Shown here one piece after another: positions 51 through 51,695 of a stretch of 64,000 bases of DNA. The DNA is from Escherichia phage EF202P1, in sequence record OP172796.1, one strand, 5' to 3'. The notes under the pieces are model-generated. The model ran no database searches and was not told the origin of the DNA. It saw only the letters and a list, made by a program, of their open reading frames with translations. Every line of letters starts with the position of its first letter. Positions within the stretch are counted from its first letter, which is position 1. Position numbers and translations under genes: made by a program.

Positions 51-299
51 ATGGCAACTATCCGCGCAACTGTCAATGCTTATGGCTGTTATACTCTGGA
101 CGTTAAATTTGATATTGGTGGAACTGATGAGTGTTTTTCATTAGTGAAGACAGTTATCAAGCAAGTTATCCCAGATTATAACCCTACTGATGACTTCTGG
201 AAAGACGCTGTAAAAGAGGCATTAAACGACGAGCATCACTATCATTACTGGGGTGACTTGATTATCTCACTGTACTACAATAAACAAGGTTACAACTAA
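51..299 (+). CDS. hypothetical protein (82 aa)
   Basis: ORF preceded by AGGAG-like RBS; followed by hairpin terminator at 339-360. Confidence 0.55.
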   Translation: MATIRATVNAYGCYTLDVKFDIGGTDECFSLVKTVIKQVIPDYNPTDDFWKDAVKEALNDEHHYHYWGDLIISLYYNKQGYN

Positions 300-338
300 T
301 CGACGCAACGGGGCTAAATAGCCCCAGATACCTTCACA

Positions 339-360
339 GCCCCATTTAAGGGGCTTTTTT
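339..360 (+). terminator. rho-independent terminator
   Basis: GCCCC-ATTTAA-GGGGC stem-loop followed by T6. Confidence 0.7.
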
Positions 361-809
361 ACGTCTATGTAATAGCCTCTATACAATCCCTTTCCTTTCC
401 TTTCCAGAATCTTACTAGACCTTAAAAGCAATAACTCTATAGCTTACTCTATAACCTTTTATCAAATCAACTTAAATATAAGCCCATAACCCGAAAGGGA
501 AGGGCAACCGTTTAAACGCTCTATAAAGCTCTATAACAGCCTTATCAACCTAACTTAAGGGATTGCATTAACTCACCCTTAAAAGCCCTTTATAAAGCTT
601 CCCAGAGCCTTAAAAGAATCTTATAAGGGTGTAAGCTTTATTATCTCGTTAGTATCTTGTGAACTACTAAAAAGGGGCTTGTTAGTGTCTTAAAAGTATG
701 TTATAGGGGCTATAAAGTTACTTCAAAGTTACGTAAAAGAGGCTATAAAGTTACGTAAATGCTAGCCCCCTTAACATCTTCTTAACAAATTCTTAACAAT
801 CCCTACATA

Positions 810-1720
810 GTTATGCTTGTTAGCAACTTGTTAGCCCCTTGTTAAATCTCTGTTAAAACCACGTAAAAGCCTTGTAAGAGTCTTTGACATAGCCTTTAAA
901 GCTCCTGTAAAGCCTTATAAATAGGTGTCTGTATAGTTGGGGTGTAATTACTAGGAAGAGGCTTAAAAGAGCTTACAAAGAGCTATAGAGAGCTTTTAAA
1001 AGGGCTATTTAAAAGGTCACTAAGAGGGAAAGGGAACGATAAGAAAAGAGATAGTGACCGTGTTAATAGCTTGTTAAAAAGATTAAATACTTGTTAGAGA
1101 CTTGTTAATTATCTTAACAAAATAACTCTTAAAAATTAACTTGTTAGCTCTTGTTAGTCATCTGTTAAGACTCTGTAAAGACCATGTATCGACTGTTAAG
1201 AACTTGTTACAGCCTTGTTAGTTCTGTTAAGAGTCTGTTAAGACCTCTGAAGAGATGTTAAGAGCTTGAGAGAGTTGTTAAGAGATTGTTAATGATATTT
1301 TAAAATTCTGCAAAGGGGATGTTACAGGGATGTTAAGGGCTACCAAGCAGATATACATCCTAATCAGATATTTTTGAGTTCCTTCAAAGACCCTAAAAAA
1401 TGACTTGATAGCTCTATTTTATAAAAATTTTAAAATTCTGAATAATCACCTAGACAGTCTTTTAAAAATACAGGCATAAACAGGCTTATAAGATACCTTG
1501 TTAATACCGTGTTAGACCTTGTGAGATAAGGTCTGTAAAGATATTCCTGTTAAGTTTGTTAAAACAGTCTATATAGAGGCTTAGTAATACCTAGTGAACA
1601 CCTATAGAGTGTCATCTATGTGACATAGAGATTAAGAGGTGTATAGGGGCTTCTAAGAGTGTGTAGAGAGATGGTTAAGGTGATTGTATAGGTTGTTAAG
1701 AAGGCTTGTTAGAAGAGTGT
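810..1720. repeat. array of about 28 degenerate (T)TGTTA(A/G) direct repeats, densest at 1061-1337; candidate iteron/protein-binding array
   Basis: Short motif recurs every 10-20 bp in an ORF-free region (for example ttgttaga, ttgttaat, ctgttaaga, gatgttaaga); also CTATAAAG/GGCTATAAAGTTAC direct repeats at 712-757. Confidence 0.6.
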
Positions 1721-1756
1721 TTAGAAGGGCTATACAGAGGGGCTATTAAGACCACT

Positions 1757-1802
1757 AGATAGATACTAAGATACTATATAGTACTATATAACTATATATA
1801 GA
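1757..1802. repeat. AT-rich ACTATATA/AGATACTA repeat tract (possible DNA unwinding element)
   Basis: agatactaagatactatatagtactatataactatatata lies directly after the repeat array. Confidence 0.45.
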
Positions 1803-1934
1803 GAGTAAGCTTAAGAAGGTTGTTAAGAAGGGTAGATATTTTATTCACATATGATGGTGACCCAGAGGTTGGGACAACCGATAAAATTTTATAAAAATTG
1901 AAAAGCCCCCAATTAAGGAGGCTCTTAAGATATT

Positions 1935-2485
1935 TTAAATCAGTGTTTCCAGAACTGTCTTCAGTGATGACTTGGTTGTTTGATAAAAATGAGTAAATCC
2001 GTTATTGTTATCGAATACCTGCATCATGATATCATCTCCCTTGATTGGATACACTCGGATATCATAGTGAAACCCATTAAATACAGCAGAACCATTACAG
2101 AATGCTCTAAAGTCATCCACTGAGATATACTCTTCATGACCTGTGATTTTTATACAAACACCTTTACTCGGTCTCTTAGGGTTGATATCTTCCATCACAG
2201 ACATACTCTGTCCACCAAGAGAGACCATAGTGACCATTTTACGGTTCTTCTGTCTGAAGTACATCTTAACTTTCTGTAAAGTATCTTCATAGAACGGATA
2301 AGACCTTTCTACAAAGATTCCTTCAAGTGGCTCTTTACCATTTTCAACTTCTCTGTTATGCCGTACTGCAAAGATAATTTGTTGGAACCAGTCAAAATTT
2401 TCTTCGGAGAGTCCTTCCCGAATATCATTCCAGTCAAGGACTAGATAGTTACCTTCAACTTCTTTTAAGTTATCTTTTTTTTCAT
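1935..2485 (-). CDS. hypothetical protein; reading frame interrupted at an A8 run near the start (frameshift or homopolymer length error)
   Basis: ATG at 2485-2483 opens a 6-codon frame (MKKKIT*); the -1 frame is open from there to 1935 with no in-frame ATG/GTG/TTG until 2264; slippery A AAA AAG at 2480-2474. Confidence 0.4.
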
Positions 2486-2498
2486 ATCTATCACACCG

Positions 2499-2963
2499 TT
2501 ATCGTAAAACTTGGTAAGCTGGTACTGCAAACTTGTTGCCGCTGTTCTTAATGAGGTCTTCTTCTGTTACTAAGAATGTAAGACCAAACAAATGTAAATA
2601 GATGCTGTCACACTCAAATATCTTAAATAGGTATTTACCGTCATGATAAACAGACTCTACTACACCTTTTGCAACAACCTCTCCAGTCTTGAAGTCTTTA
2701 AGGCGGTATACATTACCAACTTTAGGGACTGTTTTCATCTCAGGCTCTTTTAGCTTCTCACCAACCTCTACATCACCTAGTAAGTTAGAACTTTCAAAAG
2801 CTATATGGTTCATATAAGCTTCTGAGCATTCCAAGATAAAGCAATGCACAAGAGCCTTAGCAGCATGTCTTGAACAATTCAACTTATCACAAATCTCTTT
2901 GTACATTTTATCTTTAGTTGAATTGTTAAGCATTGCTTTTTGAACTACTACTTTAATTTTCAT
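2499..2963 (-). CDS. hypothetical protein (154 aa)
   Basis: ORF in minus-strand early block; no recognisable motif. Confidence 0.6.
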   Translation of the reverse strand: MKIKVVVQKAMLNNSTKDKMYKEICDKLNCSRHAAKALVHCFILECSEAYMNHIAFESSNLLGDVEVGEKLKEPEMKTVPKVGNVYRLKDFKTGEVVAKGVVESVYHDGKYLFKIFECDSIYLHLFGLTFLVTEEDLIKNSGNKFAVPAYQVLR

Positions 2964-3016
2964 TTCGCTACCTTCTAAGTTCCTACAAAGGGGCTATCAA
3001 GTAACCCCTCAAGTTA

Positions 3017-3241
3017 TTACTCAGACTTTTCAGTCTTCTTATCAGATTTCTTACTAGTCTTCTTCTCAGCTTTCTGCTCAGGTTCCTTCTCAGAAGTTGC
3101 CTTGATAACCATATCGAGAAGCTCTGATAAGTCACTTTTCAGCAAAGTAACAGGCTGCTCATTGTAGAAGTTTTTGTCAAGATAAACTTTGAACTCTTCA
3201 ATAGATGGAAATCCAAAAATTGGTACAGGTGTCTTAATCAT
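3017..3241 (-). CDS. hypothetical protein (74 aa), Lys/Glu-rich C-terminus
   Basis: ORF; C-terminal KAEKKTSKKSDKKTEKSE low-complexity tail. Confidence 0.5.
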   Translation of the reverse strand: MIKTPVPIFGFPSIEEFKVYLDKNFYNEQPVTLLKSDLSELLDMVIKATSEKEPEQKAEKKTSKKSDKKTEKSE

Positions 3242-3317
3242 TATTTAGTTTCTCCATAGGCATCTTTTAAGATTGCCTTGTTAATCATTTCAGCGATTGC
3301 AAAACGAACACATACAG

Positions 3318-3821
3318 CTATAATTGTAGGTTGCATTCTTTACTTACCTCTTCAAGTTTAACCTCAGAGTCCTTGAGTCGTTTCTTATGAACTCTGAATC
3401 TTAGTAGTGCGATGATGATACCAACTAAAGGGACAGCATACAAGTACCAAACATCATATACCTTTGCAGTAATCTGTGTAATGGTTAAGTCTTGAGCTAT
3501 GGAACTGATTGCTGATACTACCAGTAATGTTGCTAGGAAAAATGCCAGTACCATTACCGTACTTAAACAACCTCTGGCATGGTGTTCGTGCTTAATGCAC
3601 TTATTCTTTTCGTCAACAACCCTGTTGTAGTCGTTTGTAAAGTCTCTGTAGAAAGCTTTCAAGTATTCTTTATTGTAGCCTTCAAAGCAACCTGTACCGT
3701 ACCAATAATCACCACCAAAATGTGCTATGATACCGGTATCCCCGTTTGGTTTGGTTACTCTCAAAGAAGTATGATGACGAGTATCCTGATAATCTATCTT
3801 ATATCTTTCTTCGTAAATCAT
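3318..3821 (-). CDS. hypothetical membrane protein
   Basis: ORF with two hydrophobic helices (VMVLAFFLATLLVVSAISSIA; YLYAVPLVGIIIALL); start trimmed to the ATG overlapping the upstream stop (ATGA). Confidence 0.5.
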   Translation of the reverse strand: MIYEERYKIDYQDTRHHTSLRVTKPNGDTGIIAHFGGDYWYGTGCFEGYNKEYLKAFYRDFTNDYNRVVDEKNKCIKHEHHARGCLSTVMVLAFFLATLLVVSAISSIAQDLTITQITAKVYDVWYLYAVPLVGIIIALLRFRVHKKRLKDSEVKLEEVSKECNLQL

Positions 3822-4051
3822 TTTCCAACCCCTCTCAATCGTTTGTTCCACTCAAGGTCAACAAGTCTTTGCAGGACTTTCCCTCTAGGTGTTACACCTT
3901 TTAAATCTGCATCGTAGCAACGGTAAAAGTCACCTTCAGCATGTTTACCATAGCATTTTCTGATATTCTGACTTCTACGGTATTGTTCTAATAGAGACAG
4001 TCTGTAGTAATCTTCAACTGTAGTTAGTTTTTTCATTCTTTCACCACGCAT
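3818..4051 (-). CDS. hypothetical protein (77 aa)
   Basis: ORF, stop overlaps the next start. Confidence 0.5.
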   Translation of the reverse strand: MRGERMKKLTTVEDYYRLSLLEQYRRSQNIRKCYGKHAEGDFYRCYDADLKGVTPRGKVLQRLVDLEWNKRLRGVGK

Positions 4052-4119
4052 CTTCTTAAGAAACTAAAAAGGGAACTACCTCTCGATAGCTCCCATCATA
4101 GTTAGCCTTGTATATTCGG

Positions 4120-4701
4120 TCAAGAGTATTTTTTAGGCAGTAATGCACTACGTTTGTTACTCTCTTCACTCAATAGTGCGATGAAGTCATCACCTTTACC
4201 TTTCCACGGGCTGAATGAAGGGATATGTTCACGAATAGCCTCAATAACCGTCTTAAGTGCTGTATTTTTCATCCACCAATCAGAATCTGCTGATGCTACA
4301 ACATAGTACCCGCCATCATCAGTAAGGATTGGCTCTGAGATACATGGTGAAATCAGAGTGGTGATGATTGAACCATTATTCATGTAGTATGTGCGCTTCA
4401 TAACCTTTTCAAGAAGCTTGTGAAGGTCACCAAACAGTGTTACAAGCTCTTTGTGGTCAATGTCTTTTTCGAGATTTGCTCGATACTTCAAAAGTGCAGC
4501 ATCAACTTCTCTGTCATTAAACTTGAAGTACTGGACTTCCTCAACAAGACAAACACTGATGTTGTTGACATTCATAGTCAACTTGCAGACTTTTGCAGGA
4601 GAATTGATATTTGGTTGAAAAAGTGCAATACACCCTTCAATGTTTCCAAAATGTTGTACTAATGTCACTTGTGGAGTGATACTCTGTTGCTCTTCGGACA
4701 T
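4120..4701 (-). CDS. hypothetical protein (193 aa)
   Basis: ORF in coupled gene series. Confidence 0.6.
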   Translation of the reverse strand: MSEEQQSITPQVTLVQHFGNIEGCIALFQPNINSPAKVCKLTMNVNNISVCLVEEVQYFKFNDREVDAALLKYRANLEKDIDHKELVTLFGDLHKLLEKVMKRTYYMNNGSIITTLISPCISEPILTDDGGYYVVASADSDWWMKNTALKTVIEAIREHIPSFSPWKGKGDDFIALLSEESNKRSALLPKKYS

Positions 4702-5045
4702 TACAGTTTCCTCATTAAATACTTTTTAAGTTGTGTGTTAGGTTTCTCAAAAACTTCTATAGAAGATATCTTGACAGATTCACCACGCATACCTGTATGT
4801 TTGAATATATAGTACTCTAACATCCCTATATACTTTGCTGGTAAGTCATGTTTGACATACACCGTTACAGAATCTTCAAATTCAACAACCTTTGTACCAT
4901 CTTTGTAGTTAAACTCTTTAGGATGGTCGTAGTTGTCGATATCGTACATTAAAAAGAGTCTTTTCCGTTGCATATCAAGCTTATTGGTTAAAGACTCTTT
5001 GATATCTGAGAAGTTTTTGTACACTGTGACATGGAGCTTACTCAT
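4701..5045 (-). CDS. hypothetical protein (114 aa)
   Basis: ORF, start/stop coupled. Confidence 0.6.
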   Translation of the reverse strand: MSKLHVTVYKNFSDIKESLTNKLDMQRKRLFLMYDIDNYDHPKEFNYKDGTKVVEFEDSVTVYVKHDLPAKYIGMLEYYIFKHTGMRGESVKISSIEVFEKPNTQLKKYLMRKL

Positions 5046-5337
5046 CGTTAAACTCTCTGACGAAGAAATAATTGACTTTGTTATTACCTACCATAAGGTC
5101 AAAGCAGGTGTTCTCAAAAGGTTTGTTGTAGGCATCATATGAAGTGTACGTATCAGCTACTTGTTTAGTATTGAGCTTTTTACTTGATGGATTTAAGAGG
5201 CCACCATACAGTTTCTTGATAGCCTCTTCTACAACAGACCAGATGATTTCGTCAGTAATTTCTTCGTACAGGTCAAGTTCACGTTCTAGTGAGAAGTCAC
5301 AAATAGGGAAAATAACCTGTACTTTACTCATTAGCAA
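5038..5337 (-). CDS. hypothetical protein (99 aa)
   Basis: ORF, start/stop coupled. Confidence 0.55.
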   Translation of the reverse strand: MLMSKVQVIFPICDFSLERELDLYEEITDEIIWSVVEEAIKKLYGGLLNPSSKKLNTKQVADTYTSYDAYNKPFENTCFDLMVGNNKVNYFFVREFNDE

Positions 5338-5726
5338 ATGACCTGTGTTACCTGAATAGCTTCAGTTACTGACAAATCACCAACCGTTTCTTCTTTGACG
5401 AAGGTGAAGGTAAGCTCAACAGGCTCTTGTTCTTCCTGCTCAACCGGAATACCGTTAAGCTCATCAAAGATTGATTGAGTTGTCCAGTCTTCTCCACCAT
5501 CTGGATAGTGGATTGCGTAAAGTGGAAACTCTAAATTATACCAAGCAAAAACAGGGCAACCATCTGCATCATCTCGACATCTGTGGAGATATGTGTTTGT
5601 GCCTTCAAAATGCAAATGGAGATTACCATTCTTCTCAAAGAGAAGAGCATCTTGCAGGTCAAGTTCCTCATTTTCGCTGTAACGGCTGACATCAACTTTA
5701 ACGTGAATATGACTGTTATTATTCAT
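5331..5726 (-). CDS. hypothetical protein (131 aa)
   Basis: ORF, start/stop coupled. Confidence 0.6.
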   Translation of the reverse strand: MNNNSHIHVKVDVSRYSENEELDLQDALLFEKNGNLHLHFEGTNTYLHRCRDDADGCPVFAWYNLEFPLYAIHYPDGGEDWTTQSIFDELNGIPVEQEEQEPVELTFTFVKEETVGDLSVTEAIQVTQVIC

Positions 5727-6117
5727 AAAAACCTCTCTCTGCTTGTTCGATTTTCGCTTTTAGAACTTCACACCGTTCAATGTGATATCTGGCTTCATGT
5801 TCATGTGTCGCCAAAGTTCTTTCAAGAATGGTTTTATAGTAACCTGCAAGTTGCTCTCTTGTCAATGGGTTCTCTGAAATAATATCGAGACCACTTTCAC
5901 CAAGAGTATTAAACTGCCCATGTTCATTTACATGATAAGTCTCAAACTTGAATAAACCGTTATTAGCAGATTCAATAGGCGATAGTTCAACCAACTCAAC
6001 AGTGAACATTGTGTGCACCCTATCACCAACTGTAACAATGTTACTTCCAATGATGCGTACAAGCGAACCATTACGAGTGTACTTAAAAGTCCCAAAGTCA
6101 CTAGCCCAAAGCTTCAT
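5719..6117 (-). CDS. hypothetical protein (132 aa)
   Basis: ORF immediately downstream of a minus-strand terminator. Confidence 0.6.
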   Translation of the reverse strand: MKLWASDFGTFKYTRNGSLVRIIGSNIVTVGDRVHTMFTVELVELSPIESANNGLFKFETYHVNEHGQFNTLGESGLDIISENPLTREQLAGYYKTILERTLATHEHEARYHIERCEVLKAKIEQAERGFYE

Positions 6118-6131
6118 AGTTTTCTCCTTAG

Positions 6132-6158
6132 AAAATAAAAAAGGCTCCCGAAGGAGCC
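6132..6158 (-). terminator. rho-independent terminator (minus strand)
   Basis: GGCTCC-CGAA-GGAGCC hairpin with T-run on the minus strand, just after the lysozyme gene. Confidence 0.65.
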
Positions 6159-6168
6159 TATGAAGATA

Positions 6169-6633
6169 TTACTTTGGGTATACACTGTCAAGATAAATGT
6201 CAGCTTCCATTCTACGTCTGTTTTTCAGGCCGTTTGAAGTGACCTTCTTACCTTTGACTGTAACCTTGTTCCACCACTGCATAGCTTCTGCACAACCTAC
6301 CTTATTACCAGCATTGTGGCGCTTGATAAATGTAGAATCCTGCATAGCTGTGATACCGATGTTGTATGTTTCACTTACAAGTGCATCGAACTCGTTCTGA
6401 GAAGTTGGAACCTTGATAGCTTTATTCACTGCTGCAACGAACTTCTCAACATCTGCAAGAAGATACTGTTCAGCTTGTTCAGCAGTAATTTTCATACCCA
6501 TCTTAACAGGTTTTCCGTCAATACGGATTGTACCATACCCGATTGTTGGGATTCCGGCAGAGTCTTCGTAAGCCTCTAACTTCAGACCTTCAAAGAACTT
6601 AATAGCTTCTAAACCTTTTCTTGAGAGTTGCAT
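6169..6633 (-). CDS. phage lysozyme / endolysin (T4 e-type, GH24-like)
   Basis: LEAYEDSAGIPTIGYGT motif typical of T4-type lysozymes; 154 aa. Confidence 0.8.
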   Translation of the reverse strand: MQLSRKGLEAIKFFEGLKLEAYEDSAGIPTIGYGTIRIDGKPVKMGMKITAEQAEQYLLADVEKFVAAVNKAIKVPTSQNEFDALVSETYNIGITAMQDSTFIKRHNAGNKVGCAEAMQWWNKVTVKGKKVTSNGLKNRRRMEADIYLDSVYPK

Positions 6634-7517
6634 TATGCCTCCCCTGTTGGGTTAACTGTAACTGTTGCCGCATTAGATGTTACAGAGCCACCTGCACCAG
6701 TAACTACACAAGTGTAGCTTCCTGCATCAGCAGCAGTTGCACCTTCTTTGGTGTAAGTTGCAGCAGTTGCGTCTGGGATGACTTCCTCACCTTTCTTCCA
6801 CTGGTAACCTGTTGCACCTGTTGCAGTCACTGCTAAGTTGATGTTCCCACCTTCATTGATGGTCTGACTAGAAGGTTGTTTGGTAATCACTGGTAAGGCG
6901 TTCACAGTAACTGTTGCTGCATCTGAGGTAACACTTGTTCCAGCCTCTCCAGATACAACACAAGTGTATGAACCAGCGTCAGAAGGCGCTACAGACTGTT
7001 TTGTGTAAGTTGCAGAAGTGGCACTGGGGATGTCCTCACCATCCTTCTTCCACTGATAGCCAGTGGCGTTAGTTGCTAGAACACTTAGAGTGAGTGTACC
7101 GCCCTCATTGACTGTTTGGCCTGTTGGTTGCTGAGTAATTGCTGGTGGCTTAATAGCATCTTTCAGCTTAGCATTCAACATTGAGAAAGGCTTAACTCTT
7201 GCCAGCCATTCACAATAAACTGTATCAACGTCTTTACCATTGATAATTGCGTATTGTAAATCCATGAAGAAGTCAGAAGTTCTCATTTGAGCACCGATGC
7301 TGTAAAGCAAATCATCACTAAAAGGGACTTTGTAGTCTGGTTTGTAGTCAAACTTCTCAACTTCTGCGATATCAGCTTCAGGCCAATATGAACTATAGGT
7401 AAGTGGTAAAATAGCTTCTTGATATGTTCTAAAATCATACCTCTTACCAGCCTTTACATTTGCAACGAAACCCTTTACAAATTCTTTGAAGTCTGGGTAA
7501 GTCTTTGCTTTAATCAT
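6633..7517 (-). CDS. protein with N-terminal domain paralogous to the 7514-7885 product plus two tandem Ig-like domains
   Basis: Two ~85-aa repeats (YQWKKDGEDIPSATSATYTK...AGSYTCVV) with Ig I-set-like signature; N-terminal ~120 aa resemble the adjacent ORF. Confidence 0.7.
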   Translation of the reverse strand: MIKAKTYPDFKEFVKGFVANVKAGKRYDFRTYQEAILPLTYSSYWPEADIAEVEKFDYKPDYKVPFSDDLLYSIGAQMRTSDFFMDLQYAIINGKDVDTVYCEWLARVKPFSMLNAKLKDAIKPPAITQQPTGQTVNEGGTLTLSVLATNATGYQWKKDGEDIPSATSATYTKQSVAPSDAGSYTCVVSGEAGTSVTSDAATVTVNALPVITKQPSSQTINEGGNINLAVTATGATGYQWKKGEEVIPDATAATYTKEGATAADAGSYTCVVTGAGGSVTSNAATVTVNPTGEA

Positions 7518-7885
7518 TTCTTTTTAGCCTCTAAACGTGCGTTTAATCTAAAATAGCCTTTATGTTGTGGAGACACATCACTAACAACAATACCTTCAAC
7601 TTTATAACCCTTACCAATTACATACTGGATATCCATAAGAAACGTACCAAGCCCAACAATGTGGAACATTGGGTATAGCAACTTATCTGAATCTGGGAGT
7701 TTAATTTCTGGGTTATAGGTGGGTTGTTCGGCGGTTGGTGTAATATCCTCTTCAGGCCATTTACTCATTCTCCATGTTAAAGGTGATGCAACAACATCGT
7801 TAAGATTGTATCTTTCACCATTCTCCACGGAGTGGATATAGGATTGTAGGAAGCAATAAAAGTCTTTTGCACTCTTAGCCTTCAT
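7514..7885 (-). CDS. hypothetical protein, paralog of the N-terminal domain of the 6633-7517 product
   Basis: Shared order of motifs (KDF..F...V..G.RY; WPE(E/A)DI; LLY; FxMD(I/L)QY). Confidence 0.65.
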   Translation of the reverse strand: MKAKSAKDFYCFLQSYIHSVENGERYNLNDVVASPLTWRMSKWPEEDITPTAEQPTYNPEIKLPDSDKLLYPMFHIVGLGTFLMDIQYVIGKGYKVEGIVVSDVSPQHKGYFRLNARLEAKKK

Positions 7886-7899
7886 TAAATATCCTTATA

Positions 7900-7923
7900 A
7901 ACAGATAAAGGGGCATCAGCCCC
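7900..7923 (-). terminator. hairpin terminator (likely minus strand)
   Basis: GGGGC-ATCA-GCCCC hairpin flanked by T-rich sequence on the minus strand. Confidence 0.5.
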
Positions 7924-7932
7924 TGTTTATAC

Positions 7933-8523
7933 TTAAGCTTTGGTCTTAAGTAGGTTCTTAAGTTTTTTGAGATTCATGCTCTCGTCAAACTTAAAACCAA
8001 ATCCATTGACATAATCAATGAACTCGGATTTCTTACTAAGTGATAGTGCGTAACTCATATCAAAGTTATTACTTGTTTCTGCGTCTGGACTAGAGTTCAC
8101 ATCAAATGAAATTTCTGTAGGCTCTTGCTTGCTACTTCTCATATTATCAATCAATAGACAGGTGTAGTTCGCTGGATAGAAGTTAACACTCCCATCAACA
8201 TACCCATACTTATTATTGTGAATAAGGCTGGAAAATACCTTAAGAAATGTTTCTGAGTCGTGGCATACAAGTTTGAATTGACTGCATTCCCCAAGAGCCA
8301 CTAAAGAGTAAGGGCTTTCACTATCAATGTCATAGTTTGGATTTGATGTTGTAACCGTCACACGCATCAAGTTATTAGCAATAGTCTTCTGCTTGAAAGA
8401 ATTTGGGACATAGTGAAGACCTCTATCACACTGATTAACTAGCTCTTTCAATAGGTCATTTGCATATGGTGAATTAATTGATACAGAGCCATCACTATTA
8501 TAATTAAAACTTACTGTTAACAT
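7933..8523 (-). CDS. hypothetical protein (196 aa)
   Basis: ORF. Confidence 0.6.
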   Translation of the reverse strand: MLTVSFNYNSDGSVSINSPYANDLLKELVNQCDRGLHYVPNSFKQKTIANNLMRVTVTTSNPNYDIDSESPYSLVALGECSQFKLVCHDSETFLKVFSSLIHNNKYGYVDGSVNFYPANYTCLLIDNMRSSKQEPTEISFDVNSSPDAETSNNFDMSYALSLSKKSEFIDYVNGFGFKFDESMNLKKLKNLLKTKA

Positions 8524-8750
8524 TTTTCAGTTCTCCTGCGATTTATGATTTTGCTGCAATAGAGAAACGAAGTAAACTCACTGGAAGAAACCATTAAGTG
8601 TTGTTCACTAGATTGAGCCATTGCCCTGAAATACATTCCAGTCAAAGCATCGTAGTGACTATTCTTTCCAATTGAGGTTATATAGCCATGACTCTTTGCA
8701 GTTTTATATAAATCTATAATATCTGCGATTTCTAATTGGGAACTACACAT
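8517..8750 (-). CDS. hypothetical protein (77 aa)
   Basis: ORF overlapping the downstream start. Confidence 0.45.
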   Translation of the reverse strand: MCSSQLEIADIIDLYKTAKSHGYITSIGKNSHYDALTGMYFRAMAQSSEQHLMVSSSEFTSFLYCSKIINRRRTEKC

Positions 8751-8914
8751 AGATAATCCTCTTGTCTTCTGTAATTTTGAAAGAACAGGTACAGACCAAT
8801 TTCAGAGGATGAATAGTAGAGTAACTCTACCCTTTTTGATTCCTTACAGTGATTGGTATTTTTACCTTTCTTCGGGTTGTTTGATTTTCTCATTAAGTCT
8901 CCTTTGTAGAACAA
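8732..8914 (-). CDS. hypothetical small basic protein (60 aa)
   Basis: Short ORF at the head of the minus-strand block. Confidence 0.35.
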   Translation of the reverse strand: MFYKGDLMRKSNNPKKGKNTNHCKESKRVELLYYSSSEIGLYLFFQNYRRQEDYLCVVPN

Positions 8915-8991
8915 GGCAGACCTACAGCTTTAAGTAAGATGGTACAGTAATCCATACAACAAGTCAAGAACTATTGCAAGTTAAAAAAGTT

Positions 8992-9016
8992 GTTGACAAA
9001 GTACTTGACAAGGTGT
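8992..9016 (+). promoter_or_regulatory. conserved 25-bp tandem-TTGACA element (GTTGACAAAGTACTTGACAAGGTGT), candidate early promoter/operator
   Basis: Near-identical copy at 51497-51521; both sit in divergent intergenic regions upstream of the first plus-strand gene of a block. Confidence 0.5.

Positions 9017-28178: not shown

Positions 28179-28179
<1 letters not shown>
27940..28179 (+). CDS. tail assembly chaperone frameshift extension (GT-like); probably expressed as a 27539-28179 fusion by -1 frameshift
   Basis: ORF lies in the -1 frame relative to 27539-27937 and is continuous with it after a slip at 27895-27901. Confidence 0.5.
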
Positions 28180-36198
<8,019 letters not shown>

Positions 36199-51496: not shown

Positions 51497-51521
51497 AGTT
51501 GACAATGTACTTGACAAGGTG
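51497..51521 (+). promoter_or_regulatory. conserved 25-bp tandem-TTGACA element (second copy)
   Basis: GTTGACAATGTACTTGACAAGGTGT, 24 of 25 identical to 8992-9016. Confidence 0.5.
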
Positions 51522-51695
51522 TTAATCTTTGCGAAGTGGGTTTTTACTTAAAAGGTTACTTAACAGTTTAACTATACAGATACTTTAAAACTCTTAAAAG
51601 ATTATTTAATAGCTTTTAAAAAGCTTTAAAGTATAACGTATAGAATACGTTAAGATAAAAGATTAAAACTTAATAGTTACTTAAAAGAGGCTTAC

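Follow-up and report, generated by a model that had tools for sequence, protein, structure and literature searches.

A conserved, easily melted TA-rich tract in the terminal control region of Felix O1-like phages as a possible unwinding element near the genome end

In phage T7, the genome ends reportedly comprise a 160-bp terminal repeat, the SRL and SRR arrays of short repeats and pac signals, and the secondary origins of this phage, phiOL and phiOR, are said to consist of a promoter combined with AT-rich DNA. Origins of the iteron type with a repeated unwinding element are found in lambda (ori) and in the plasmids RK2, P1 and pSC101, comparable repeated units being the 13-mers of oriC; iterons are present in 3-7 copies of 17-22 bp. 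In T5, the terminal repeat contains a non-coding, repeat-rich 'injection stop signal' region, and in Twort-like phages inverted repeats are located at the borders of the long terminal repeats; the repeats of both kinds of phage are 8-10 kb long, carry genes and have proposed roles in two-step DNA transfer and in border recognition. In T7 phagemids, ori, pac and the terminal repeat were all required (PMC13236587). Here, we analyse a TA-rich tandem tract found in a stretch of 64,000 nt from Escherichia phage EF202P1 (OP172796.1; hereafter, the window). We interpret the tract as a cis-acting element that is conserved within the terminal control region, an untranscribed part of the genome of this Felix O1-like phage. 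It can be classified with the terminal control regions of phages with short direct terminal repeats (DTRs), the T7 ends being the closest analogue.

The tract lies in a gap of approximately 1.6 kb that contains no ORF of at least 40 aa (Table 1). A plus-strand gene with its terminator is found on the left and a minus-strand gene with its terminator on the right, therefore two transcription units converge on the gap; their last genes, homologues of Felix O1 gp23 and gp24, belong to PHROGs of unknown function. The Felix O1 genome paper described the same four transcription units without comment on the gap, and suspected "short terminal repeats" solely from the genome size (PMC3185647). For the non-coding stretch 300-2000 of the window, matches were found in 262 phage records, and almost all of these belong to Felixounavirus, the Felix O1-like myophages that infect Escherichia, Salmonella and Shigella; vB_EcoM_P54 is the best match (94% identity), and Felix O1 is at 90%. 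The right-end flank holds blocks conserved across three genera, and two of its repeated words, CTTAAAAG and CTATAAAG, are related to the TGTTAR-type words described below. As a separate observation, the frame of the gp24 homologue is intact over 182 codons with the start codon out of frame at an A8 run, ATGAAAAAAAAGAT (2468-2484, minus strand). An A7 in place of A8 would give an in-frame ATG, and Felix O1 has ATGGAAAAAGAT there; the A8 run is either a homopolymer sequencing error or a real change of the start site.

Table 1. Features of the gap and its borders in the window (Escherichia phage EF202P1, OP172796.1).
Feature	Position	Strand	Basis
gp23 homologue of Felix O1, 82 aa, last gene of rightward unit	51-299	+	ORF list; annotated in Felix O1, AYO145A and finno
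Intrinsic terminator ending rightward unit	338-355	+	Terminator scan; terminator annotated at same place in AYO145A
Right-end flank, ORF-free, left of DTR, with CTTAAAAG / CTATAAAG / CTTATAAG repeats	360-764	.	k-mer enrichment; families D9, D10, D12, D14
Inferred DTR, 580 bp, single copy in collapsed sequence	765-1344	.	Homology to records with repeat at both ends
11-bp inverted motif, left copy CCCTTAACATC, 3 bp inside left DTR boundary	768-778	+	Inverted repeat I13
11-bp inverted motif, right copy GATGTTAAGGG, 5 bp inside right DTR boundary	1329-1339	+	Inverted repeat I13
Left-end flank, ORF-free, from DTR to end of leftward operon; contains tract	1345-1900	.	Conservation
Composite motif CTATATAG-N3-CTTAGTA, copy 1	1569-1586	+	Motif search; three-genus alignment
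Direct repeat AGGTTGTTAAGAAGG, left of tract	1690-1704	+	Repeat family D6
TA-rich tandem tract	1757-1802	.	Repeat anatomy, duplex energy, cross-genus alignment
Composite motif CTATATAG-N3-CTTAGTA, copy 2, inverted, overlaps left half of tract	1764-1781	-	Inverted repeat I20
Direct repeat AGGTTGTTAAGAAGG, right of tract	1817-1831	+	Repeat family D6
Intrinsic terminator ending leftward unit, ~100 bp from tract	1901-1926	-	Terminator scan; terminator annotated in AYO145A
gp24 homologue of Felix O1, last gene of leftward unit	1935-2483	-	ORF list

A preliminary description of this DNA had pointed to a low-stability, AT-rich tandem-repeat tract, and our analysis bears this out: the string quoted there, agatactaagatactatatagtactatataactatatata, occupies positions 1761-1800 exactly, the repeats are seen, and the tract is the least stable duplex of the window, far beyond chance. 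With SantaLucia nearest-neighbour energies, the least stable 30-bp (1771-1800) and 46-bp (1756-1801) duplexes rank first among approximately 64,000 positions (z 4.5-4.7), as does the 60-bp minimum (1744-1803). TRF reports an array of period 8 at 1759-1800 (4.8 copies, 80% matches, score 47). The left part of the tract is formed by two copies of AGATACTA (1761-1776), while three ACTATATA units of about 10 bp start at 1773, 1783 and 1791 and together span 1773-1801; this word has six copies per 64 kb, four of which fall inside 26 bp of the tract. Moreover, the tract contains a 16-bp perfect palindrome, TATATAGTACTATATA (1775-1790), and a (TA)4 run (1793-1800). Strand separation is easiest here because the tract is a run of TA steps organised as three to four tandem CTATATA decamers. 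The 18-bp composite motif CTATATAG-N3-CTTAGTA has just two matches in the 64 kb, both in the gap, where they form an inverted pair 177 bp apart; a count of two was reached in none of 100 shuffles, and in Felixounavirus, Mooglevirus and Suspvirus both halves of the motif are conserved with a variable N3 spacer. A related family, CTATAGAG (D7), is scattered across the gap.

With a 101-bp query, the tract was found in 219 phage records, and coverage of the query was 80% or more in 214 of them. Common variation among 19 Felixounavirus sequences is limited to the length of the (TA)n run and to one or two variable bases near 1763-1764. Among 18 distinct Felixounavirus rows, the mean pairwise identity of the right flank (1345-1935) amounts to 0.89-0.99 and mostly exceeds that of the coding DNA on either side (0.74-0.95). 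In the three-genus alignment (Felixounavirus, Mooglevirus and Suspvirus), where non-coding DNA elsewhere is only about 60% invariant, the fraction of invariant columns is 0.80 at 1770-1799 versus 0.17-0.37 at 1695-1755. The conserved unit is the CTATATA decamer, of which Felixounavirus and Mooglevirus have three copies and SUSP1 (Suspvirus) has four, and a 1-bp insertion breaks the 16-bp palindrome in Mooglevirus. The Erwinia phage Pistou (Kolesnikvirus) possesses an analogous 1.4-kb ORF-free gap between convergent genes (locus positions 160-1567), with TGTTAAGA arrays (CTGTTAAGA / TTGTTAAGA), CTTCTAA repeats and the AAGCAGATATACA box; the CTATATA tract is absent from this gap, which has a different A/T-rich patch. 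Since Pistou keeps the arrays without the tract, the repeat architecture is subfamily-wide and the tract is limited to the three genera. We also considered a natural deletion of the tract in phage dune (MN850636.1) and rejected it: the 106 missing bp (window 1708-1813) coincide with the record ends, both flanking GGTTGTTAAGAAGG copies are retained, and the records of ekra and BPS17W1, which also open nearby, carry the tract. The loss in dune probably reflects an assembly that broke within the TA-rich tract and not a viable deletion, hence this "complete genome" is likely to be about 100 bp short.

Many GenBank records begin or end within the gap. An identical 579-bp repeat at both ends of the CRP22 record maps to the proposed DTR of the window, and Mooglevirus HP1 has an annotated 570-bp repeat_region at both ends with the same boundary bases; aligned to the window, the two repeats start at G765 (GCCCCCTTAACAT...) and end at C1344 (...GTTAAGGGCTACC). 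Position 1345 aligns with base 614 of Ro111lw, for which a 613-bp DTR was published (PMC6454146), and with base 582 of I14.1. PhageTerm studies reported DTRs of 570-613 bp in the Felix O1-like group (PMC8303462, PMC6454146, PMC11984208), as well as 581-bp and short DTRs in other members (PMC8303462, PMC11984208, PMC11737134). Given these matching boundaries in relatives, the window would hold a collapsed 580-bp DTR, and the gap would thus contain the physical genome ends; this mapping is based on homology to four independently ordered records from two genera and not on reads of the EF202P1 isolate. Record breakpoints at approximately 1670-1730 were also considered as physical ends and were judged to be arbitrary openings. 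By the same homology, the tract lies 412 bp to the right of the DTR and about 1 kb from the left end of virion DNA, and in PhageTerm-ordered records it is located at about 980-1110.

Between 680 and 1830, TGTTAR occurs 27 times on the plus strand and four times on the minus strand, with approximately one occurrence expected, often at a spacing of 10-11 bp. Twenty-three of the 31 copies are located within the DTR, the main arrays occupying 816-1340, and the left DTR border carries three reversed TGTTAR-type copies. The preliminary description placed the tract directly downstream of an iteron array. Single AGGTTGTTAAGAAGG copies do flank the tract on both sides, but the main arrays lie more than 400 bp away. 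Moreover, the term iteron does not suit them: the supposed array is mostly the 580-bp DTR and, with its 8-bp core (TGTTAAGA / CTTGTTAG), 10-11-bp phase and more than 27 copies, is unlike iterons of 17-22 bp. The origin picture drawn there was incomplete because the array largely represents the terminal repeat of the chromosome. At the DTR borders, CCCTTAACATC recurs as its reverse complement GATGTTAAGGG, therefore both virion ends, read inward, would show the same word, which makes this inverted 11-mer a candidate terminase or nuclease recognition or cut-site motif. Both border copies are conserved in Mooglevirus and Suspvirus, and the box AAGCAGATATACA just past the right boundary is still recognisable in Pistou. 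Two further repeats were observed in this region, both conserved across the three genera: a 14-bp exact direct repeat, ATTTTAAAATTCTG, whose copies (1297-1310 and 1427-1440, 130 bp apart) straddle the right DTR border, and a palindromic box, TTTTATAAAA, found twice in the left-end flank (1417-1426 and 1888-1897).

With the T7 ends this region shares a short non-permuted DTR, untranslated DNA with short, mostly one-orientation repeats in and beside the DTR, an AT-rich element less than about 1 kb from the left end and, if the replication role proposed below holds, replication and packaging signals placed together at the concatemer junction; in addition, the CCTAAAG-type words of T7 resemble CTTAAAAG / CTGTAAAG / CTGTTAAG. 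Unlike T7, however, this phage is a myovirus without a phage RNA polymerase, no promoter was detected beside the tract, and transcription converges on the ends rather than starting there; the 580-bp DTR and the tandem CTATATA decamer array also set this region apart, and it has no sequence homology to T7. The likeness to iteron origins consists of direct repeats near an AT-rich, internally repeated segment that is easily melted by nearest-neighbour energy and whose repeat units are conserved in sequence. In contrast to those origins, the repeats number more than 27 over 1.1 kb, most of them within the DTR, and have an 8-bp core phased at 10-11 bp, and neither an adjacent Rep- or O-type gene nor a conserved DnaA box or IHF site is found. 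T5 and Twort-like phages likewise have untranslated, repeat- and palindrome-rich DNA associated with terminal repeats and short inverted border motifs; however, their repeats are 8-10 kb long with genes, and the roles proposed for them would be conjectural in Felix O1-like phages.

The tract is real, conserved and physically unusual, and the origin reading offered in the preliminary description is reasonable but unproven. Building on the observed position of the tract relative to the ends, its conservation, repeat anatomy and low stability, we infer a role in replication, and our leading, although tentative, reading is that the tract may be the unwinding element of an origin near the genome end. 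The duplex-stability check proposed earlier was carried out in simplified form, with our own implementation of a Benham-type superhelical model (single-run states, 5-kb domains). When nearest-neighbour energetics are used, no other site of the window opens before the tract (P 0.97 at sigma -0.05), whereas with A+T/G+C copolymer energetics it stays closed (P of at most 0.02) and 1063-1146 and 1405-1448 in the same gap open. Given these opposite outcomes, superhelical opening at the tract is model-dependent. In the nearest-neighbour model, approximately 20 further sites of the 64 kb also open once sigma reaches -0.06. One of them lies in the divergent promoter region at 51.56-51.69 kb, beside a 909-aa gene that presumably encodes the DNA polymerase; strong opening of this AT-rich DNA (51560-51686), which follows the second copy of the early promoter word, is predicted with both sets of energies and makes the region an alternative origin candidate.

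No initiator gene was detected near the tract: the seven flanking ORFs gave no Pfam match except one sub-threshold hit to DUF5092, and they fall only in PHROGs of unknown function. For Felix O1, a DNA polymerase, a primase/helicase and a ligase are listed, with no recognised initiator (PMC3185647). The gap contains neither a conserved DnaA box nor an IHF core; the single one-mismatch DnaA-like box at 1841 (17 such boxes per window correspond to the chance level) is not kept in Mooglevirus or Suspvirus, and for want of conserved sites we rejected dependence on DnaA or IHF. No sigma-70 promoter scoring at least 9/12 was found in the tract and none above 9/12 in the gap, where nearby matches are weak, and the early promoter motif of the phage is absent from the gap, its sole occurrences being at 8993 and 51499. 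Other candidate functions were also rejected. A structured RNA found no match to an Rfam family at E <0.5. As to a general phage promoter motif, ACTATATA and CTATATAG do not lie upstream of genes elsewhere in the window and TATAAATA is unenriched. A cruciform or hairpin is disfavoured by an unremarkable single-stranded DNA fold (z -1.2) and by the broken palindrome of Mooglevirus. GC skew, tried as an origin marker, just tracks the direction of transcription, and an origin or pac site borrowed by plasmids found no match in PLSDB. A search of the available literature yielded no paper on the gap, the origin, transcription start sites or satellites for Felixounavirus.

Several observations speak for an origin, namely the lowest duplex stability of the 64 kb, the early opening in the nearest-neighbour superhelical model, the discrete peak of conservation, the presence in 219 records and the setting in ORF-free, promoter-poor DNA between convergent terminators with phased short repeats on the flanks of the tract. 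The decamer number, which differs between genera (three versus four), and the variation of (TA)n, with the units kept intact, would fit a repeated unwinding element. Since the tract lies among phased short repeats in an untranscribed gap, its resemblance to an origin built of iterons and an unwinding element is real; the 'classic origin layout' claimed for it holds as far as ease of melting, conservation and phased repeats are concerned, but not in that the repeats mostly belong to the DTR and no initiator, DnaA box or IHF site accompanies them. The coincidence of these "iterons" with the DTR and the cut sites points to packaging, and the TGTTAAGA arrays kept by Kolesnikvirus without the CTATATA tract also argue against an origin. 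We speculate that the tract could be opened by proteins bound to the phased TGTTAAG-type repeats, by negative supercoiling and/or by transcription of the leftward operon, which stops at a terminator about 100 bp from the tract and could therefore extend into it by read-through only; the opened site would then be where the primase-helicase and the DNA polymerase of the phage are loaded. Such an origin would be closer to the secondary origins at the T7 ends, made of a promoter and AT-rich DNA, than to a plasmid iteron origin. With no known initiator, opening by transcription or supercoiling, as in a T7-like origin, is a better fit than a plasmid-type iteron origin.

A packaging or terminus role accounts for the location of the tract equally well, and we consider it a serious, although less probable, rival explanation of the tract. 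The gap would then be the concatemer-junction control region of a short-DTR phage, in which a terminase or a small-subunit-like protein is proposed to read the TGTTAAG-type repeats and to cut at 764/765 and 1344/1345, while the tract, as a flexible hinge or a protein-wrapped segment, is proposed to help the assembly of the packaging complex or the duplication of the DTR. This proposal is consistent with untranslated DNA carrying short-repeat arrays in and around the DTR, a layout shared by Mooglevirus, Suspvirus and Kolesnikvirus, with the DTR adjoining the region of the tract, with the accumulation of TGTTAR copies inside the DTR (23 of 31) and with the CCCTTAACATC 11-mer, inverted and placed 3-5 bp inside both boundaries. 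The PhageTerm DTRs of 570-613 bp in the group (PMC8303462, PMC6454146, PMC11984208) and the requirement of T7 for a pac site and a terminal repeat (PMC13236587, citing Chung and Hinkle 1990) point in the same direction, as do the TGTTAAGA arrays and the box right of the boundary that persist in Kolesnikvirus, and the copying of 1281-1442, which straddles the right boundary, in an E. coli island with Felix O1-like tail genes (see below). However, the tract is missing both from Kolesnikvirus, presumed to package its DNA alike, and from the island copy. Moreover, it is 412 bp away from the nearest cut site, and most characterised terminase recognition elements lie closer than this to the cut. Slippage at (TA)n also changes the distance between the two AGGTTGTTAAGAAGG copies by about 6 bp from isolate to isolate, which argues against a strict looping geometry.

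It is unlikely, though conceivable, that the tract is read as duplex DNA, in the manner of an operator or insulator, by a sequence-specific protein recognising CTATATAG-N3-CTTAGTA and the CTATATA decamers, for example a regulator acting where the leftward operon ends, a nucleoid-associated protein or, at a start site for an unannotated RNA, a modified host polymerase. The rarity of the composite motif, present only twice in 64 kb as an inverted pair with conserved halves and a variable spacer in three genera, would suit such a protein, as would units conserved in sequence beyond mere composition and the spread of the CTATAGAG family (D7) through the gap. On the other hand, the tract has no sigma-70 promoter at 9/12 and no Rfam match, the early promoter motif is absent from the gap, ACTATATA and CTATATAG do not precede other genes of the window, the length of (TA)n is free to vary, and the 1-bp insertion of Mooglevirus breaks the palindrome. 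That the tract has no function, being a slippage-prone TA microsatellite kept by descent in AT-rich non-coding DNA, seems very improbable to us. Its (TA)n length is indeed polymorphic among isolates, the TRF score of 47 is modest and the single-stranded fold is unremarkable (z -1.2); however, the tract is a local peak of conservation in three genera, against about 60% invariance in other non-coding DNA, and among Felixounavirus it is more conserved than the adjacent coding DNA. Its unit structure, kept despite differing unit number, and its presence in 219 records, 214 of them with at least 80% query coverage, also contradict a mere microsatellite.

A weak match to window 1281-1442, including an exact 25-mer, turned up in 13 of the 5,426 complete E. 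coli genomes; this segment crosses the right DTR border and reaches into the left-end flank. An island of about 11.5 kb inserted in yecE accounts for these 13 occurrences. In strain 40EC (NZ_CP070920.1, approximately 1957.3-1968.9 kb; locus positions about 300-11900), the match sits in 513 bp of non-coding DNA within the island, which splits yecE and encodes a large serine recombinase, a small resolvase-type recombinase, a Dam-like methylase, an HTH protein and a transposase, as well as tape-measure and baseplate proteins. The tape-measure and baseplate genes are syntenic with window 28179-31195 (29% and 67% aa identity, respectively), and a copy of the palindrome located downstream of the early promoter (window 9056-9111) is present in the 513-bp stretch as well; the ATTTTAAAATTCTG pair is recognisable in the island as well, and the AT tract is absent from it. 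Felix O1-like phages have a virulent lifestyle, which makes it odd to find their tail genes and non-coding signals in an integrated element. Judging from these sequence likenesses, the island may be a satellite that mimics the helper signals of virulent Felix O1-like phages; a literature search found nothing on such an island. As a separate observation, the early promoter word TTGACAnnGTACTTGACAAGGTGT occurs in tandem and is identical in both divergent intergenic regions (8993-9016 and 51499-51522).

A joint reading, which we regard as quite improbable, would make the gap a combined replication and packaging centre, in which TGTTAAG-type sites both set the ends and drive melting, the island, possibly a satellite, having copied the signals. 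The inverted CCCTTAACATC at each DTR border would define the ends, replication would begin at the melted decamers, about 1 kb inside the left end, and the island, with its large serine recombinase, would have taken part of these signals together with an operator-like palindrome at about 9.0-9.1 kb. Felix O1-like phages are widely used in Salmonella typing, biocontrol and therapy, and the DTR, the border motifs and the most easily melted site are found in one conserved block of 1.6 kb, a small target for experiments. For engineering, this block shows where cargo must stay out and what a transducible plasmid would need. If the island truly mimics part of the block, one may ask whether virulent myoviruses have satellites in E. 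coli.

An additional observation concerns the composition of the window as a whole. GATC is missing from all 64,000 nt, although dinucleotide-preserving shuffles predict 184 +/- 12 occurrences and a Markov estimate gives 210; the window likewise lacks ATGCAT, CTGCAG, GAATTC and GGTACC, and CAGCTG occurs once, with 9-26 of each expected. The lack of GATC and of the other palindromes is a strong avoidance of restriction and Dam sites.
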